Origin: Escherichia coli
Lineage (GTDB): Bacteria; Pseudomonadota; Gammaproteobacteria; Enterobacterales; Enterobacteriaceae
Assembly (NCBI RefSeq): GCF_001677475.2
Contig: NZ_CP015229.1
Reading direction: 5' to 3' (one strand)
Length of the DNA: 64,000 nt
Position 1 is the stretch's first letter; each line of letters opens with the position of its first letter. The position numbers and the translations under genes are program-made. The notes under the pieces are model-generated. The model made no database searches. It had not been told where the DNA came from and worked only from the letters and a program-made list of their open reading frames with translations. Below are positions 2,891 to 19,704 of the stretch, one piece after another.

Positions 2891-3634
2891 ATGACACAGA
2901 CTGAATCAGCGATTCTGGCGCACGCCCGGCGGTGTTCGCCTGCGGAATCGTGCGGCTTCGTGGTGAGAACGCCGGAGGGAGACAGGTATCTTCCCTGCGT
3001 GAATATCTCCGGTGAGCCGGAGGCGTATTTCCGGATGTCGCCGGAGGACTGGCTGCGGGCAGAAATGCAGGGTGAGATTGTGGCGCTGGTCCACAGCCAC
3101 CCCGGTGGACTGCCCTGGCTGAGTGAGGCCGACAGGCGGCTGCAGGTGCAGAGTGATTTGCCGTGGTGGCTGGTCTGCCGGGGGGCGATTCACAAGTTCC
3201 GCTGTGTGCCACATCTTACCGGGCGACGCTTTGAGTACGGGGTGACGGACTGTTACACGCTGTTCCGGGATGCTTACCATCTGGCGGGGATTGAGATGCC
3301 GGATTTTCATCGCGGGGATGACTGGTGGCGTAACGGCCAGAATCTCTATCTGGATAATCTGGAGGCCACAGGGCTGTATCAGGTGCCGTTGTCATCAGCA
3401 CAACCGGGCGATGTGCTGCTGTGCTGTTTTGGTTCATCGGTGCCGAATCATGCCGCCATTTACTGCGGCGACGGCGAGCTGCTGCACCATATTCCTGAAC
3501 AACTGAGCAAACGAGAGAGGTATACCGACAAATGGCAGCGACGCACACACTCCCTCTGGCGTCACCGGGCATGGCACGCATCTGCCTTTACGGGGATTTA
3601 CAACGATTTGGCCGCCGCATCGACCTTCGTGTGA
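2891..3634 (+). CDS. K: Lambda-like tail assembly protein K (JAB/MPN metalloprotease-like plus NlpC/P60-like domains)
   Basis: 247 aa ORF; JAMM motif HSHx7Sx2D (HSHPGGLPWLSEAD); C-terminus matches lambda K as recalled; overlaps I by about 100 nt as in lambda; alternative internal start at 3035 corresponds to the classical 199-aa lambda K. Confidence 0.85.
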   Translation: MTQTESAILAHARRCSPAESCGFVVRTPEGDRYLPCVNISGEPEAYFRMSPEDWLRAEMQGEIVALVHSHPGGLPWLSEADRRLQVQSDLPWWLVCRGAIHKFRCVPHLTGRRFEYGVTDCYTLFRDAYHLAGIEMPDFHRGDDWWRNGQNLYLDNLEATGLYQVPLSSAQPGDVLLCCFGSSVPNHAAIYCGDGELLHHIPEQLSKRERYTDKWQRRTHSLWRHRAWHASAFTGIYNDLAAASTFV

Positions 3635-4203
3635 AAACGGGGGCCGAAGCCATCCGGGCGCTGGTCATGCAGATCCCGGCGTTTCGTCAGAAACTGAGCG
3701 ACGGCTGGTATCAGGTACGGATTGCCGGGCGGGACGTCAGCACGTCCGGGTTAACGGCGCAGTTACATGAGACTCTGCCTGATGGCGCTGTGATTCATAT
3801 TGTTCCCAGAGTCGCCGGGGCCAAGTCAGGTGGCGTATTCCAGATTGTCCTGGGGGCTGCCGCCATTGCCGGATCATTCTTTACTGCCGGAGCCACCCTT
3901 GCAGCATGGGGGGCAGCCATTGGGGCCGGTGGTATGACCGGTATCCTGTTTTCTCTCGGTGCCAGTATGGTACTTGGTGGTGTGGCGCAGATGCTGGCAC
4001 CGAAAGCCAGAACTCCCCGTACACAGACAACGGATAACGGTAAGCAGAACACCTATTTCTCCTCACTGGATAACATGGTTGCCCAGGGCAATGTTCTGCC
4101 TGTTCTGTACGGTGAAATGCGCGTGGGGTCGCGGGTGGCTTCTCAGGAGATCAGCACGGCAGACGAGGGGGACGGTGGTCAGGTTGTGGTGATTGGTCGC
4201 TGA
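3532..4203 (+). CDS. I: Lambda-like tail assembly protein I
   Basis: 223 aa ORF, same length and position as lambda I; Gly/Ala-rich hydrophobic C-terminal half. Confidence 0.85.
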   Translation: MAATHTLPLASPGMARICLYGDLQRFGRRIDLRVKTGAEAIRALVMQIPAFRQKLSDGWYQVRIAGRDVSTSGLTAQLHETLPDGAVIHIVPRVAGAKSGGVFQIVLGAAAIAGSFFTAGATLAAWGAAIGAGGMTGILFSLGASMVLGGVAQMLAPKARTPRTQTTDNGKQNTYFSSLDNMVAQGNVLPVLYGEMRVGSRVASQEISTADEGDGGQVVVIGR

Positions 4204-4263: not shown

Positions 4264-7200
4264 ATGGGTAAAGGCAGCAGTAAGGGGCATACCCCGCGCG
4301 AAGCGAAGGATAACCTGAAGTCCACGCAGTTGCTGAGTGTGATCGATGCCATCAGCGAAGGGCCGGTTGAAGGTCCGGTGGATGGATTAAAAAGCGTGCT
4401 GCTGAACAGTACGCCGGTGCTGGACAGTGAGGGGAATACCAATATCTCCGGTGTCACGGTGGTGTTCCGTGCAGGTGAGCAGGAGCAGACACCGCCGGAG
4501 GGATTTGAATCCTCCGGCTCCGAGACGGTGCTGGGTACGGAAGTGAAGTACGACACGCCGATTACCCGGACCATCACGTCTGCAAACATCGACCGTCTGC
4601 GCTTTACCTTCGGTGTGCAGGCACTGGTGGAAACCACCTCAAAGGGGGACCGGAATCCGTCGGAAGTCCGCCTGCTGGTTCAGATACAACGTAACGGTGG
4701 CTGGGTGACGGAAAAAGACATCACCATTAAGGGAAAAACCACCTCACAGTATCTGGCCTCGGTGGTGGTGGGTAACCTGCCGCCGCGCCCGTTCAGTATC
4801 CGGATGCGCAGGATGACGCCGGACAGCACTACAGACCAGCTGCAGAACAAAACGCTCTGGTCGTCATACACCGAAATCATCGATGTGAAACAGGGCTACC
4901 CGAACACGGCACTGGTCGGTGTACAGGTGGACTCGGAGCAGTTCGGCAGCCAGCAGGTGAGTCGTAATTATCATCTTCGCGGGCGCATTCTGCAGGTGCC
5001 GTCGAACTATAACCCGCAGACGCGGCAATACAGCAGTATCTGGGACGGAACGTTTAAACCGGCATACAGCAACAACATGGCCTGGTGTCTGTGGGATATG
5101 CTGACCCATCCGCGCTACGGCATGGGGAAACGTCTTGGTGCGGCGGATGTGGATAAATGGGCGCTGTATGTCATCGGCCAGTACTGCGACCAGTCAGTGC
5201 CGGACGGCTTTGGCGGCACGGAGCCGCGCATCACCTGTAATGCTTACCTGACAACACAGCGTAAGGCGTGGGATGTGCTCAGTGATTTCTGCTCGGCGAT
5301 GCGCTGTATGCCGGTATGGAACGGGCAGACGCTGACGTTCGTGCAGGACCGGCCGTCGGATAAGGTGTGGACCTATAACCGCAGTAATGTGGTGATGCCG
5401 GATGACGGCGCGCCGTTCCGCTACAGCTTCAGCGCCCTGAAGGACCGCCATAATGCCGTTGAGGTGAACTGGATTGACCCGGACAACGGCTGGGAGACGG
5501 CAACAGAGCTTGTGGAGGACACGCAGGCCATTGCCCGTTACGGTCGTAACGTCACGAAGATGGATGCCTTTGGCTGTACCAGCCGGGGGCAGGCGCACCG
5601 CGCCGGGCTGTGGCTGATTAAAACGGAACTGCTGGAAACGCAGACCGTGGACTTCAGCGTGGGTGCCGAAGGGCTTCGCCATGTGCCGGGCGATATCATT
5701 GAAATCTGCGATGATGACTATGCGGGTATCAGCATCGGTGGTCGCGTGCTGGCGGTGAACAGCCAGACCCGGACGCTGACGCTCGACCGTGAAATCACGC
5801 TGCCATCCTCCGGCACCACTCTGATAAGCCTGGTTGACGGAAATGGCAATCCGGTCAGCGTGGAGGTTCAGTCCGTCACCGACGGCATGAAGGTGAAAGT
5901 GAGCCGTGTTCCTGACGGCGTTGCAGAATACAGCGTGTGGGGGCTGAAGCTGCCGACGCTGCGCCAGCGCCTGTTCCGCTGCGTGAGTATCCGTGAGAAC
6001 GACGACGGCACGTATGCCATCACTGCCGTGCAGCATGTACCGGAAAAAGAAGCCATCGTGGATAACGGGGCGCACTTTGACGGCGACCAGAGCGGCACGG
6101 TGAATGGTGTCACGCCGCCAGCGGTGCAGCACCTTACCGCCGAAGTCACCGCAGACAGCGGGGAGTATCAGGTACTGGCCCGCTGGGACACGCCGAAGGT
6201 GGTGAAGGGCGTGAGCTTCATGCTTCGCCTGACCGTGGCAGCGGACGACGGCAGTGAGCGGCTGGTCAGCACAGCCCGGACGACGGAAACCACATACCGC
6301 TTCAGACAACTGGCGCTGGGGCGTTATATGCTGACGGTCCGGGCGGTAAATGCCCGGGGGCAGCAGGGTGATCCGGCGTCGGTATCGTTCCGGATTGCGG
6401 CACCGGTAGCGCCTGTCACTATTGAACTGATACCGGGGTATTTTCAGATAACGGCGGTCCCGAAACTGGCTGTATATGACCCGACGGTACAGTTTGAGTT
6501 CTGGTTATCGGAAAAGCGGATTATCGATATCAGGCAGGTTGAAACCACAGCCCGCTATCTTGGTACGGCGCTGTACTGGATAGCCTCCGGACCGGATATT
6601 GAGCCGGGCAATAATTATTATTTTTACGTTCGCAGTGTGAATACCGTCGGCAAATCGGCATTTGTGGAGGCTGTTGGCCAGCCGGGTAACGATGCTGAGA
6701 AATATCTCCATTTTTTTGAAGGGAAAATAAACAGCACCCTGCTGGGGCAGGAGCTGAACGATCGTATTAATGCCTCGGCATTGCGCAGTGAAGTTGAGCA
6801 ACTGGAGGATGAGATCAATCAGCAGATAGAGAGTGATATTGCTGAAGTGACCCAAAAAATCGGGGAGACAGAAAACAGCCTCACGCAGCTGGTTGCGAAA
6901 AAAAATGATGAGCTGTCACTGGGTATATCACAGGTGAGCCAGAGAGTGGATAACGTCAGCAGCGAACTCACGCAGACGGTCAGTCAGAGTAATGAGGAGA
7001 ATGCACGCCAGATAGCGCAGGTTCGCCAGTATGTGGATCAAAAAAGCAGTGAAATCATGACGACAACGGACCAGAAGCTGGGAGATCAGGAGGCCACCAT
7101 CCAGCAGATACAAAAGGTTCAGACGGACACCAGTAATAACCTGAACAGTATGTGGGCCGTGAAACTGCAGCAGATGCAGGATGGTCGCCTTTATATTGCG

Positions 7201-7965
7201 GGTATCGGTGCCGGTATTGAGAACACCCCCGACGGCATGCAGAGTCAGGTGCTGCTGGCGGCAGACAGGATTGCGATGATTAATCCTGCAAATGGCAACA
7301 CAAAACCGATGTTTGTTGGTCAGGGTGATCAGATATTCATGAATGAAGTGTTCCTGAAATATCTGACGGCTCCCACCATTACCAGCGGCGGTAATCCTCC
7401 TGCATTTTCCCTGACACCGGACGGAAAGCTGACCGCTAAAAATGCCGATATCAGCGGTAACGTGAATGCGAACTCCGGGACGCTCAACAACGTCACGATA
7501 AATGAGAACTGTCAGATTAAGGGGAAACTGTCAGCCAACCAGATTGAAGGCGATATTGTCAAAACGGTCAGCAAGTCTTTCCCCCGCACGAACAGTTATG
7601 CCAGTGGCACCATCACGGTAAGAATCAGTGATGATCAGAAATTTGACCGGCAGGTCATGATACCGCCAGTGTTGTTCCGTGGTGGTAAGCATGAGAATTT
7701 CAACAGTAATAACCAACAGTCATACTGGTATTCAACCTGCCGGTTAAGAGTGACCCGCAATGGTCAGGAGATTTTTAATCAGTCCACGACGGATGCTCAG
7801 GGCGTATTTTCCTCAGTTATAGATATGCCTGCCGGACAGGGGGCGCTGACACTGACATTCACCGTATCTTCATCAGGAGCGAATAACTGGACACCAACAA
7901 CCAGTATCAGCGATCTGCTGGTTGTGGTGATGAAGAAATCCACAGCAGGTATCAGTATCAGCTGA
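4264..7965 (+). CDS. J: Lambda-like tail tip / host specificity protein J (1233 aa) with divergent C-terminal receptor-binding region
   Basis: N-terminal about 800 aa match lambda J as recalled ([21 protein letters not shown]...); C-terminal third diverges and is longer. Confidence 0.9.
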
Positions 7966-7982
7966 ATTTTATAACCCATAAC

Positions 7983-8008
7983 GGGCGTCAGAAATGACGC
8001 CTTTTTTA
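7983..8008 (+). terminator. Rho-independent terminator after J
   Basis: Stem GGCGTCA/TGACGCC with GAAA loop followed by TTTTTT. Confidence 0.6.
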
Positions 8009-8031
8009 TTGCAGAAAAGCGAGAGGTAATT

Positions 8032-8631
8032 ATGCGTAAACTTTATGCCGCCATTTTGTCCGCAGCCATTTGTCTGGCCTTATCCGGTGCGCCTGCATGG
8101 GCGTCTGAACATCAGTCCACGCTGAGCGCGGGGTATCTTCATGTCTCGACGAACGTTCCCGGCAGCGATGATCTGAACGGGATTAACGTGAAATACCGTT
8201 ATGAGTTTACGGACACACTGGGTATGGTGACGTCATTCAGCTATGCAGGAGACAAGAATCGCCAGCTGACCCGTTACAGCGATACCCGCTGGCATGAAGA
8301 TTCCGTTCGTAACCGCTGGTTCAGCGTAATGGCGGGGCCGTCTGTGCGCGTGAATGAATGGTTCAGCGCGTATGCGATGGCGGGTGTGGCTTACAGCCGT
8401 GTGTCGACTTTCTCCGGGGATTATCTCCGCGTAACTGACAATAAGGGGAAAACGCACGATGTGCTGACCGGAAGTGATGACGGTCGCCACAGCAACACGT
8501 CTCTGGCGTGGGGAGCTGGCGTGCAGTTTAACCCGACCGAATCCGTGGCTATTGATATTGCTTATGAAGGCTCCGGCAGTGGCGACTGGCGCACTGACGG
8601 TTTCATCGTGGGTGTCGGTTATAAGTTCTGA
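8032..8631 (+). CDS. lom: Lom-like outer membrane protein (Ail/Lom/PagC family)
   Basis: 199 aa ORF with signal peptide (MRKLYAAILSAAICLALSGAPAWA) and terminal aromatic residue (YKF); lambda lom position downstream of J. Confidence 0.85.
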   Translation: MRKLYAAILSAAICLALSGAPAWASEHQSTLSAGYLHVSTNVPGSDDLNGINVKYRYEFTDTLGMVTSFSYAGDKNRQLTRYSDTRWHEDSVRNRWFSVMAGPSVRVNEWFSAYAMAGVAYSRVSTFSGDYLRVTDNKGKTHDVLTGSDDGRHSNTSLAWGAGVQFNPTESVAIDIAYEGSGSGDWRTDGFIVGVGYKF

Positions 8632-8657
8632 TTAGCCAGGTAACACAGTGTTATGAC

Positions 8658-8686
8658 AGCCCGCCGGGTTCAGGCGGGCTTTTTTG
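8658..8686 (+). terminator. Rho-independent terminator after lom
   Basis: Stem AGCCCGCC/GGCGGGCT followed by TTTTT. Confidence 0.65.
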
Positions 8687-8696
8687 TGGGGTGAAT

Positions 8697-10787
8697 ATGG
8701 CAGTAAAGATTTCAGGTGTCCTGAAGGACGGAGCGGGTGAGCCTGTCGTAAACTGTGCGATTGAATTGCGAGCCAGAAGAACCAGTCCGACAGTTGTGGT
8801 TAATATTGTGGCAACCTGTCTTACGGGAAGTGATGGCGGGTATACTATTAATGCTGAGCCGGGATTTTATGATGTATTTTTGTCCCGCTCAGGGCATCCT
8901 CCTGTAAAGGCGGGGGAAATTTATGTTGCACCGACAGATGAGCCGGATACGCTGAATGCTTTTCTGGATGCACCAAAGGAGGGTGATTTACGCCCTGAGG
9001 TAATGAAGCGTTTTGAGGAAATGGTAAATACCGTTGTTCGCTTGTCTGAGCAGGTGGTCAGTGACAGGGAGAGAGCAGAAACAGCTGCTGATGATGCAAT
9101 CAATGCAGCAACATCTGCGGCGGTTAGTAAGGATGAGGCAGAAGAGCTAAAAAATCAGACACAGCAGAGCGCCGAAGCTGCAGCCGGAAACGCACAGCAG
9201 ACGGCACAGGATGTGACGACAACCGCAACGGCCCGTGATGATGCGGAACGTTTTGCGGGTGAGGCAGAAAACAGCGCACAGTCATCAGGCACAGCGCGGG
9301 ACGAATCAGTCGATGCCGCCGAACGCGCCCGCCTTTATCATAATGCCGCATCATCAGCAGCGACCAGTTCAGAACTGTCGGCAAATGCGGCGCTGGGGCA
9401 CAAAAACAGTGCCGCCGAATACGCCCGACAGGCTAAAGCCAGCCAGGATGCAGGTGCAGACAATGCGCAGGAAGCGAAACAGTACAGGGATGAGGCGCAG
9501 CAGATAGTTGATGACCTGAATGCAACAAATGCCTCCACGACAGAAAAAGGTCTGGTGCAACTCTGTAGTGATACGGACAACGACAGCGAGGAACTGGCTG
9601 CCACGCCAAAGGCTGTCAAAGACGTCATGGACGAGGCGAAAACAAAAGCGCCACTGGACAGTCCGGCCTTCACCGGCACCCCAACCACCCCAACCCCACC
9701 GGATGATGCCGCCGGTCTGGAAGCAGCGAACGCAGCGTTTGTGCGCAAACTGCTTGCTGCGCTGGTTGGCTCATCGCCGGAAGTTCTGGACACCCTGAAC
9801 GAGCTGGCAGCGGCGCTGGGCAATGACCCGAACTTTGCGACGACAATCACAAACGCGCTGGCAGGCAAACAACCGCTTAATGACGTCTTAACGGCAATCA
9901 GCGCACTGACGCAACGGGCAGATAATCTTCTGTACTTCAATACAGACGGGAATGCCTCACTGTCTCTGCTGTCAGAGAAGGGCCGCGCATTACTGGCGCA
10001 TGACACGGCTGAAGCCATGCGCACGGAGCTTGAGCTGAACGCGGCTGCGACGATGGAACCCCAGAGTGATATCCGTGACCGCACACCGGGCAGGCTGGCC
10101 CTGTCCGGGATGTATGGGTTTGGACAGGCATTCACCAGCACTGACGCTCTGGCGTTTGAGGGGCTGTCTGATTTCGTTGAGTGGTTGAAGAAAGTCACGC
10201 CGGGGCGGTATGCGGTCAGTATTACAGACTCCTCGCAACTGCTTACCGGTACCACGCAATTTAACGGCATTATTGATGTGATGTGGTCACCGTACGCCAA
10301 CAGTGAATCCGACACAGTCCGCAAATTTAAAACCCTGATGTGCTACAACCAGTATTATCAGGGTGAACACTGTATTCACTATATGCAGTACCGGTACAAC
10401 GACAGCGATAACAGCTGGAACATGTCATCGCGGGTAGTTGTATACGACGGAGATTCACTGGCGTACCTGCTGTCCAGGATGGCGGGCTCAGGCTCATATT
10501 ATAAATACCCGGCCGTTGGTGTGCCGATTATGGCGGCATATCAGGGGGAGAGTTTTGGTGCAGATGCGTCTCTGGGGCTCGGTGATATTGTGCCGGGTTC
10601 CCGTCTTGGCCCTCTGGCTATGAGTGCACGGGTTAGCGATACAGGGACATACGCATCCTCACCGCAGGTTGTGATTGGCGGTGCTGGTGAATACAACTTC
10701 CCCGGTCGTTACACGGCGCTTTCGGGGACCCGCATTAGTCACGATACAACGCGTGGCTATATCGGTCTTTTTGTACGCATTGAGTAA
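8697..10787 (+). CDS. stf: Prophage side tail fibre protein (Stf-like)
   Basis: About 696 aa ORF (ATG at 8697; the ORF track starts at GTG 8691); Ala/Gln/Glu-rich fibrous central region; followed by tfa. Confidence 0.8.
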   Translation: MAVKISGVLKDGAGEPVVNCAIELRARRTSPTVVVNIVATCLTGSDGGYTINAEPGFYDVFLSRSGHPPVKAGEIYVAPTDEPDTLNAFLDAPKEGDLRPEVMKRFEEMVNTVVRLSEQVVSDRERAETAADDAINAATSAAVSKDEAEELKNQTQQSAEAAAGNAQQTAQDVTTTATARDDAERFAGEAENSAQSSGTARDESVDAAERARLYHNAASSAATSSELSANAALGHKNSAAEYARQAKASQDAGADNAQEAKQYRDEAQQIVDDLNATNASTTEKGLVQLCSDTDNDSEELAATPKAVKDVMDEAKTKAPLDSPAFTGTPTTPTPPDDAAGLEAANAAFVRKLLAALVGSSPEVLDTLNELAAALGNDPNFATTITNALAGKQPLNDVLTAISALTQRADNLLYFNTDGNASLSLLSEKGRALLAHDTAEAMRTELELNAAATMEPQSDIRDRTPGRLALSGMYGFGQAFTSTDALAFEGLSDFVEWLKKVTPGRYAVSITDSSQLLTGTTQFNGIIDVMWSPYANSESDTVRKFKTLMCYNQYYQGEHCIHYMQYRYNDSDNSWNMSSRVVVYDGDSLAYLLSRMAGSGSYYKYPAVGVPIMAAYQGESFGADASLGLGDIVPGSRLGPLAMSARVSDTGTYASSPQVVIGGAGEYNFPGRYTALSGTRISHDTTRGYIGLFVRIE

Positions 10788-10801: not shown

Positions 10802-11380
10802 ATGAAAATCAGAGCGGTGAAAGGCATCAGAAACGCGCATTATCTTGAAAATGGTGCGGTTGACTGCGAGGTGTTATTTGAAGGTGAAACGGAGTTCGTC
10901 CTGTATACCGCCATACAGGATGATATGGCCCCGACAGGCCAGCATGTCTGGCAGGAGCTGCAAAGCGGGAAATGGGGCGAAATCGCCCCGTTCACCGTCA
11001 CGCCGGAACTTATTGCAGCGGCAAAGGATGCCAAAAGGCGGGAAATTGAGGCATGGCGCGACAGTCAGGAAAACGTTGAGTTTATTTTCACGTTTGATGG
11101 CCGTCGTTTTGATGGCGGAAAAACCTCGCAGTCACGCCTTGCCCCCGTGGTTGCAACAGCACAGGCCGGACTGCTTCCGGAGGGATTTTTCTGGACTGAT
11201 GCGGATAATAATAACGTCGTACTGACCAGGGAGAAACTTATTGCGCTGAACGATGCCATGATGGTGGCCATGGTGGCGGAGGGCTTTAAAATCCACGAAC
11301 GTCAGCGGGAGATGAAAGAGGAACTGAGCAGCCTGGAGGATTTACGCTCAATCAGAGCGATGGCGATTAGCAGTAATTAG
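10802..11380 (+). CDS. tfa: Tail fibre assembly protein (Tfa-like chaperone)
   Basis: 192 aa ORF immediately downstream of stf; Tfa-like length and position. Confidence 0.8.
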   Translation: MKIRAVKGIRNAHYLENGAVDCEVLFEGETEFVLYTAIQDDMAPTGQHVWQELQSGKWGEIAPFTVTPELIAAAKDAKRREIEAWRDSQENVEFIFTFDGRRFDGGKTSQSRLAPVVATAQAGLLPEGFFWTDADNNNVVLTREKLIALNDAMMVAMVAEGFKIHERQREMKEELSSLEDLRSIRAMAISSN

Positions 11381-11470
11381 CGGTCAATTCTGGGCTCTTT
11401 GTCTGCTCCTTCACCGTCTGGAATTGTGTGTCAATTAGCCTGGAATTAATCGGGTTCAGATTGTTTTGTT

Positions 11471-11513
11471 GTGGCAAAATTGGGACAAAAGGGGCAAAAA
11501 TGGGGCAAAAAAA
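11471..11513. repeat. Four tandem approximately 10-bp GGGGCAAAA-like units (phased A-tracts)
   Basis: GTGGCAAAAT / TGGGACAAAA / GGGGCAAAAA / TGGGGCAAAAAAA read directly from the sequence, helically phased. Confidence 0.7.
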
Positions 11514-11805
11514 GAGTAGGTTATTGTGGTTTATTGTAGTTGCTGATATGTTTTAATTCATTGAAAATGAAATAAAATACTTATGAGTCAGATGGTTGCA
11601 ATTTTTGTCCTTACTTGTTCAGGTTGTATTGTTCTTTCTTACTAATTTCTTGATTTTGCGACATTTAAAAGCGACTCAATTCGTTATATGGCATCAGAAG
11701 AGTATGCGTCATGCCGGAATGCCCAGCATAAGAAATCTGATATAAAAACAGTGGCGTGTATGGTACGGATTAGAGGGGAAAATGTCAGCACATTTGCGAA
11801 ATGAA

Positions 11806-11836
11806 TCAAAAAGCCCGCAGCAATGTGCGGGCGTTA
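11806..11836 (-). terminator. Rho-independent terminator downstream of uspF
   Basis: On the minus strand: stem GCCCGCA/TGCGGGC followed by TTTTTGATTC, directly after the uspF stop. Confidence 0.6.
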
Positions 11837-12355: not shown

Positions 12356-12414
12356 TTAGATCAAAGGAGGAAGAATAAGCAGAAAAAGCCCGCCATAACA
12401 GCGGGCAGGAGGAT

Positions 12415-13775: not shown

Positions 13776-13884
13776 GTTATATGCCTTTATTGTCACAGAT
13801 TTTATTTTCTGTTGGGCCATTGCATTGCCACTGATTTTCCAACATATAAAAAGACAAGCCCGAACAGTCGTCCGGGCTTTTTTT
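13776..13884 (+). ncRNA. micC: MicC small regulatory RNA (Hfq-dependent, represses ompC)
   Basis: Sequence GTTATATGCCTTTATTGTCACAGATTTTATTTTCTGTTGGGCC...CCCGAACAGTCGTCCGGGCTTTTTTT matches recalled MicC including the terminator hairpin; ompN-ydbK intergenic position. Confidence 0.9.
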
Positions 13885-18507: not shown

Positions 18508-19497
18508 TTAAACCAGTTCGTTCGGGCAGGTTTCGCCTTTTTCCAGATTGCTTAAGTTTTGCAGCGTAGTCTGAGAAATACTGGTCAGAGCTTCTGCTGT
18601 CAGGAATGCCTGGTGCCCGGTAAACAGCACGTTGTGGCAGGCAGACAGGCGACGGAATACGTCATCCTGGATCACGTCGTTGGATTTATCTTCAAAGAAC
18701 AGATCGCGTTCGTTCTCATACACGTCCATACCCAACGAACCAATTTTCTGATTTTTCAGCGCTTCAATAGCCGCCTGAGAATCAATTAATGCACCGCGAC
18801 TGGTATTGACGATCATCACGCCATTTTTCATCTGATCGAAGGCGGCTTCGTTCAAAAGATGGTAGTTTTCCGGTATCAGTGGGCAGTGCAGAGAGATAAC
18901 GTCTGATTCAGAGAACAGGGTTGGCAGATCGACATACTCCACACCGAGTTCCAGCGCCGCCGCACTTGGATACGGATCGAACGCCAGCAGACGCATACCA
19001 AAACCTTTCAGAATGCGCAGCATCGCCACACCGATTTTACCGGTACCGATAACGCCTGCCGTTTTGCCATACATAGTAAAGCCGGTCAGACCTTCCAGAG
19101 AGAAGTTAGCGTCACGGGTACGCTGATACGCGCGGTGAATACGGCGGTTCAGCGTCATCATCATACCGATGGCGTGTTCAGCAACGGCCTCTGGATCATA
19201 GGCTGGAACACGGACTACTTTCAGCCCCAGTTCTTTTGCCGCGTCAAGGTCGACGTTGTTGAAACCGGCACAGCGCAGGGCGATATATTTAACGCCGTGC
19301 TTTTTCAGCTCTTCCAGCACCGGGCGGCTGCCGTCATCGTTTACGAAAATACATACCGCTTCGCAGCCATTGGCAGTTTTAGCGGTTTTTTCCGTCAGCA
19401 GAAAGTCAAAAAATTCCAGCTCAAAGCCAAAGGACTCGTTCACCTGTTGCAGGTACTTCTTGTCGTACTGTTTTGTGCTATAAACGGCGAGTTTCAT
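18508..19497 (-). CDS. ldhA: Fermentative D-lactate dehydrogenase (NAD-dependent)
   Basis: 329 aa D-2-hydroxyacid dehydrogenase with GxGxxG (GVIGTGKIG). Confidence 0.95.
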   Translation of the reverse strand: MKLAVYSTKQYDKKYLQQVNESFGFELEFFDFLLTEKTAKTANGCEAVCIFVNDDGSRPVLEELKKHGVKYIALRCAGFNNVDLDAAKELGLKVVRVPAYDPEAVAEHAIGMMMTLNRRIHRAYQRTRDANFSLEGLTGFTMYGKTAGVIGTGKIGVAMLRILKGFGMRLLAFDPYPSAAALELGVEYVDLPTLFSESDVISLHCPLIPENYHLLNEAAFDQMKNGVMIVNTSRGALIDSQAAIEALKNQKIGSLGMDVYENERDLFFEDKSNDVIQDDVFRRLSACHNVLFTGHQAFLTAEALTSISQTTLQNLSNLEKGETCPNELV

Positions 19498-19704
19498 AAG
19501 ACTTTCTCCAGTGATGTTGAATCACATTTAAGCTACTAAAAATATTTTACAAAATTTCAAATATAATTGAAAGCTATGGCGATATTGAAAAATTCATCAA
19601 CAACTATGCTTAGTGTAGGCGCAACCTTCAACTGAACGGTTAAACATGCCACAATACCCGTATTGAATGCTTAATTTTTCGCTAAATCAGGATATTAACT
19701 ACCC

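Follow-up and report, generated by a model that had tools for sequence, protein, structure and literature searches.

In phage lambda, the lom gene lies between J and the side tail fibre gene stf (J-lom-stf, 18,904-19,650). Adhesion has been reported for its product (cited in PMC3594210), of which a PDB chain is named "Outer membrane protein lom" (9wso_C, 206 aa), and lambda does not need the gene to form plaques (PMC10695390). Both lom and bor of lambda are stated to be expressed from the prophage (PMC7067206, PMC1151598, PMC4195576); one microarray study did not detect lom in lysogens and described little as being known about its promoter (PMC2147009), and the expression of Phi24B lom is uncoupled from induction (PMC3342100). 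In the literature searched, no description of a lom promoter and no mapped start of its transcription was found. In HK97, J adjoins stf with no lom between them, and in N15 the same slot between J and the tail-fibre gene is filled by 22, 23 and cor; accessory genes (lom; N15 22, 23 and cor) recur at this position behind J. Lom is listed among moron products (PMC3594210). The morons of HK97 and HK022 (Juhala et al. 2000, summarised in PMC3594210) are additional DNA separating genes that adjoin each other in relatives.

The 64,000-nucleotide stretch of E. coli DNA analysed here (the window) begins inside a lambdoid tail operon, with the 3' end of L followed by an IS21-family element, the tail operon genes K (2891-3634) and I (3532-4203), J (4264-7965, + strand, encoding a tail tip/host-specificity protein of 1233 aa that matches NCBIfam lambda_TipJ at 2333 bits, above cutoff), lom (8032-8631, + strand), stf (8697-10787, + strand, identified by PHROG 2636 tail fiber and by alignment to lambda, in which the ATG at 8697 is the counterpart of the lambda stf start) and a tail-fibre-associated gene of DUF4376 type (10802-11380, + strand, PHROG 1141 and RefSeq annotation of relatives). 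The last of these is the final prophage gene, after which the chromosome continues with uspF, an OmpC-family porin gene and pfo, all on the minus strand; Q and pR', in the left part of the prophage, fall outside the window. Predicted intrinsic terminators stand before lom (terminator 1, 7983-8010, + strand, at the J end) and after it (terminator 2, 8658-8685, + strand), and a Shine-Dalgarno sequence, GAGAGG (8021-8026, + strand), read from the sequence and invariant across lom alleles, is located 5 nt 5' of the lom ATG. With a probability of about 0.75, this is a lom locus of the standard lambda type, in which a 675-bp unit (ribosome-binding site, lom and terminator) is placed directly behind the J terminator in the late (tail) operon of a lambdoid prophage, with no visible promoter. 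A lom gene with J on one side, stf on the other and a terminator at each flank is the layout familiar from textbook lambda and already known; it is shared by lambda and about 4,000 of 5,426 complete E. coli genomes and is therefore not new. Its importance is small beyond correct annotation, apart from three refinements: the assignment of terminator 1 to the tail-gene backbone, the composition of the mobile unit as a gene and a terminator lacking a visible promoter, and the tracing of the evidence for prophage expression to lambda and to the differently built 933W-type locus.

The identification of the gene as lom of the Ail/Lom family, made in the initial annotation, is borne out by a full-length match of the intact 199-aa product to Pfam PF06316 Ail_Lom (1-199 of 199, E 1.7e-119) and by a match of the open reading frame to PHROG 108 "Lom outer membrane protein". 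The window carries the phage 434/Stx-phage allele: its Lom shares 97% identity with that of phage 434 and 94-99% with those of many Stx phages, against 47% with lambda Lom. Scores against the equivalog models for Rck and OmpX fall under their cutoffs, so that Lom is a member of the family but neither of those two proteins. The translation begins with a predicted signal peptide, MRKLYAAILSAAICLALSGAPAWA, followed by SEHQ, and ends in VGYKF, the terminal phenylalanine being an aromatic end typical of outer-membrane proteins. Resemblance to the solved chains of lambda Lom (9wso_C, E 1.8e-49), OmpX (1orm_A) and Ail (3qra_A) supports a predicted eight-stranded barrel fold, and Lom would be exported via its signal peptide and inserted in the outer membrane as an Ail/OmpX-like barrel.

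The locus compares closely with that of lambda. The gene order is the same; the J-lom spacer is 61 bp in lambda versus 66 bp in the window and the lom-stf spacer 64 versus 65 bp; GAGAGGT is the Shine-Dalgarno sequence of both lom genes; and in both a hairpin with a T run precedes lom and a near-identical terminator follows it. From the 3' end of lom through the spacer to the start of stf, the window is 94% identical to lambda, and in the stem of terminator 2 a G-C pair is replaced by G-U. In contrast, the two J proteins differ in length (1233 aa in the window, 1132 aa in lambda), the Lom proteins are only 47% identical, and hairpin 1 is stronger in the window (8 bp with 6 T) than in lambda (6 bp with 4 T). 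N15 resembles the window in having an annotated rho-independent terminator after its accessory genes, just before the tail-fibre gene, but those genes, which serve superinfection exclusion, have no relation to lom, and the annotation places no terminator directly behind J.

The lom genes of 933W/Phi24B type, from short-tailed Stx phages, likewise belong to the Ail/Lom family and are followed by an intrinsic terminator, and their products are about 41% identical to the window Lom over the C-terminal 75%. Unlike the window gene, they have a different neighbourhood, no upstream terminator, and an AT-rich spacer of 90 bp that holds a strong promoter candidate (L084:1620-2520 in 933W; position weight matrix (PWM) sigma-70 score 10.7, background frequency 2e-5). 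The 933W-type lom does look like a unit of putative promoter, gene and terminator, a layout that fits the reported induction-independent expression of Phi24B lom. Since Phi24B has the 933W-type locus, its expression evidence concerns a lom locus built differently from that of the window. Expression in lysogens is known only for lom of lambda and Phi24B, not for the allele in the window, and expression of the latter in uninduced cells is not to be assumed from sequence alone.

Comparison of occupied and empty sites delimits the lom unit. Viral contigs searched with a hairpin 1 pattern yielded 120 loci. In 112 of them the hairpin is followed by the lom leader; one further locus stops directly after the hairpin, and seven (L102, L128, L137, L154, L155, L173 and L177) are without lom, with no Lom homologue anywhere in them. 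At these empty sites, which occur behind three different J C-termini, the order is J stop, hairpin 1 and TTTTTTATTT-GTGGAGTGAATATGGCAGTA, the last being the stf start. An annotated E. coli genome in which gpJ is separated from the tail-fibre gene by 58 bp confirms the empty site, and among 5426 complete E. coli genomes the occupied junction is present in 4081 and the empty junction in 1187, including E. coli B and C. The mobile unit thus delimited comprises the leader with its ribosome-binding site, lom and the downstream terminator (approximately 8011-8685, + strand, 675 bp, with boundaries uncertain by 1-3 nt because both junctions sit in T runs). Hairpin 1 is assigned to the J/tail backbone because it is kept in front of stf when lom is absent, and the downstream terminator alone travels with lom. 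These comparisons show the lom unit to be a common presence/absence polymorphism and lom to be dispensable extra DNA between J and stf. The first viral scan found only lom alleles that are 95-100% identical, and is informative on the flanks rather than on protein diversity; a scan of genome contigs based on a Lom alignment, with narrow peptide patterns, found only seven loci and yielded a third allele (L091).

Several other candidates for the ends or the loss of the unit were rejected. An 8-nt inverted repeat (TTATAACC, 7969-7976; GGTTATAA, 8617-8624) is not a cassette boundary: loci without lom also have its left copy, and its right copy encodes conserved GYK residues. The odd upstream flank of L015 is not a module boundary but an IS66 insertion. 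Phage D2 (L083:2430-2690) was left out as an empty site, its record being a partial genome with N's at both junctions; in it J is fused to the last 55 codons of a lambda-type lom, a fusion that probably arose in assembly rather than by natural deletion of lom.

If the locus works as in lambda, Q-modified RNA polymerase from pR' would read through both terminators during lytic growth, and lom would be made together with the tail genes. In the repressed prophage, by the same analogy, unmodified polymerase would halt at terminator 1, at the end of J, and terminator 2 would keep any polymerase that had entered lom out of stf and the next gene. Given a terminator 1 that stops unmodified polymerase, expression of lom in a lysogen would need either read-through of that terminator or a promoter, weak or of non-canonical type, that overlaps the J end together with the terminator. 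The reported transcription of lambda lom in lysogens (PMC7067206, PMC1151598) implies promoter activity that was not located here, which counts against the lambda-type reading as the best explanation.

The promoter scans bear on this point. A tool scan of 6500-10500 found no promoter-like site on the + strand. In a sigma-70 PWM scan of 7700-8031 the best score is 5.8, for which 1.6-3 matches are expected by chance; candidates whose -10 element falls between 7990 and 8020 reach 0.6 at most, and the outcome is just as negative for lambda and L091. The scans show the lom unit to carry no recognisable sigma-70 promoter, within the reach of consensus and PWM methods, which overlook weak, activator-dependent or alternative-sigma promoters. 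A conserved TATAAC 5' of hairpin 1 was rejected as a -10 element: it is without the final T and without a -35 partner, and a transcript started there would still include the whole terminator. Between the J stop and hairpin 1 (7966-7982) there is also a conserved TTATAACCC-like motif, kept with lom (L005-L091) or without it (L102-L177) and behind different J C-termini, which scores as no promoter element; it could be part of an unconventional promoter overlapping the J terminator. It is conceivable, if rather improbable, that the lambda-type lom unit is truly promoter-less and that expression in lysogens comes from regulated or leaky read-through of the J terminator or from an unconventional promoter overlapping it; if true, this would be a route of lysogenic conversion unlike that of the promoter-bearing 933W-type lom.

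The absence of a detected promoter, together with the location of lom in the late operon behind a strong predicted terminator, is also what would be expected if lom were purely a late gene, made only from pR' by Q-antiterminated polymerase, with the signal in lysogen cultures due to a few spontaneously induced cells and the terminators silencing lom and stf in true lysogens. The array study without a lom signal in lysogens (PMC2147009) agrees with this, as does the content of the slot in N15, where cor is a late-operon accessory gene followed by a terminator. This possibility, which overlaps the lambda-type reading, is opposed by the sources according to which the lambda prophage makes Lom (PMC7067206, PMC1151598, PMC4195576), and it is on the whole somewhat unlikely.

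Another possibility is a classical moron, in which lom would have its own sigma-70 promoter just upstream and be constitutively expressed in the repressed prophage, with terminator 1 insulating it from the tail operon and the downstream terminator ending its transcript. Expression in lysogens is reported for lambda and Phi24B lom (PMC7067206, PMC1151598, PMC3342100), Lom is classed as a moron product (PMC3594210), the DNA is additional when compared with HK97 and lom-less prophages, and lom has a downstream terminator of its own. The morons of HK97 and HK022 (PMC3594210) are like the lom unit in lying in the tail operon, in bearing an accessory gene that may benefit the host and in ending with their own intrinsic terminator; unlike them, the lom unit is a gene and a terminator only, with no detectable promoter of its own and no difference in G+C. 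The latter differences weigh against the moron. Only 21-23 nt separate terminator 1 from the lom ATG, 6 of them belonging to the Shine-Dalgarno sequence; none of the promoter candidates in the 330 nt upstream of lom is above chance, and all of the weak ones in the PWM scan precede terminator 1; and the indel unit starts 3' of that terminator and therefore imports no upstream sequence. In composition lom (G+C 0.55) is like J (0.553) and stf (0.544), and the Phi24B/933W evidence comes from a different locus with a promoter-like spacer. A classical moron is accordingly doubtful at this locus.

The initial annotation had presented lom as a moron cassette. Of the features of a moron, extra DNA (between J and stf) and a downstream terminator are present; a promoter of its own and a distinct G+C content were not found. 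It had also taken the bracketing by terminators as the signature of an independent unit, a conclusion that is withdrawn here, as terminator 1 stays in place when lom is absent and so belongs to J and the backbone. The promoter that it placed for prediction in 8009-8031 was not found; that interval, 23 nt with the Shine-Dalgarno sequence inside it, is too short for a -35/-10 promoter followed by a leader.

The two terminators themselves, as proposed in the initial annotation at 7983-8008 and 8658-8686, are upheld, their coordinates being accurate to within a few bases. Hairpin 1 (GGGCGTCA-GAAA-TGACGCCT, 7983-8002) has an 8-bp stem and a GAAA loop, folds with -13.6 kcal/mol (z -3.8, an equally good fold being found in 1 of 200 shuffles), and is followed by TTTTTTATT to 8010, that is, a T run at 8002-8007 and then ATT. 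Hairpin 2 (AGCCCGCC-GGGTTCA-GGCGGGCT, 8658-8680) has an 8-bp stem with 7 G-C pairs and is followed by a run of six T (8680-8685). Both have the anatomy of an intrinsic terminator (a G+C-rich stem, a loop of 3-8 nt and at least 5-6 T directly after). A strict scan of the whole 64 kb (stem of at least 7 bp with at least 5 G-C pairs, and at least 5 T of 6) found only these two sites on the + strand, and on the - strand three (11813-11832, 12388-12406 and 13856-13879) at the 3' ends of uspF, the porin gene and pfo, which acted as positive controls within the window. In simulated sequence about 0.5 such sites occur per 64 kb, and the presence of two predicted terminators flanking lom is confirmed as far beyond chance.

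Conservation of the hairpins was assessed in alignments and at other lom loci. Among 13 distinct J-lom spacers, including that of the third lom allele (L091), 3 of the 8 pairs of hairpin 1 are changed on both sides (G-C to A-U, C-G to U-A and A-U to U-A), 99% of the alignment cells are paired, and the observed covariation score was reached by none of 500 shuffles, while the T run is invariant; these compensatory changes show that the structure is under selection. The variation of hairpin 2 consists only of G-C to G-U changes and loop variation, besides non-homologous replacements in L082 and 933W. Among 87 lom loci drawn from viral contigs, genomes and phage records, a hairpin with a T run lies within 90 nt 5' of the ATG in 84 and within 100 nt 3' of the stop codon in 86. 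The exceptions are L015 (IS66 insertion), L073 (a single mismatch), the 933W type and L082; after lom, 933W has a non-homologous terminator in the same place and L082 has one slightly farther away. A search of Rfam gave sub-threshold chance matches only. As judged from these alignments, both hairpins are conserved, predicted terminator structures. Although 3' hairpins also stabilise mRNA, it is very improbable that these two are RNA-stability or processing elements or chance palindromes, given the immediate run of six T behind a G+C-rich stem and short loop at both, the restriction of such sites elsewhere in the window to gene ends against about 0.5 expected by chance, the covarying stem and invariant T run of hairpin 1, and the non-homologous terminators at the same position in L082 and 933W.

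The IS21-family element upstream in the tail operon (478-2887, - strand; NCBIfam transpos_IS21 and IS21_help_AAA, with boundaries from BLAST against the uninterrupted relative L096) contains istA (1295-2794) and istB (543-1298), both on the - strand, and is flanked by a 6-bp target duplication, CCCATG (472-477 and 2888-2893). Its insertion point is in the 5 bp that part the stop codon of L from the start of K, and no open reading frame is interrupted; the start codon of K is now preceded by the end of the element, and 2.4 kb of antisense DNA separates L from K. The proposal of the initial annotation that the insertion cripples the tail operon finds no support in a truncated open reading frame, and is plausible only through the lost upstream context of K and through polarity. 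Elsewhere, an IS66-family element lies between the position of hairpin 1 and the lom Shine-Dalgarno sequence in L015 (L015:2100-2500), and another lies directly after lom in E. coli N96 (L097:7717-10300), where the annotation marks the lom coding sequence as a pseudogene that lacks the C-terminus; the flanks of lom seem to attract IS insertions. At the other end of the prophage, the stretch between the last prophage gene and uspF (11381-11830) is AT-rich, with G+C down to 0.34, contains three GGGRCAAAA repeats at about 11480-11515, and is presumably the prophage end or attachment region.
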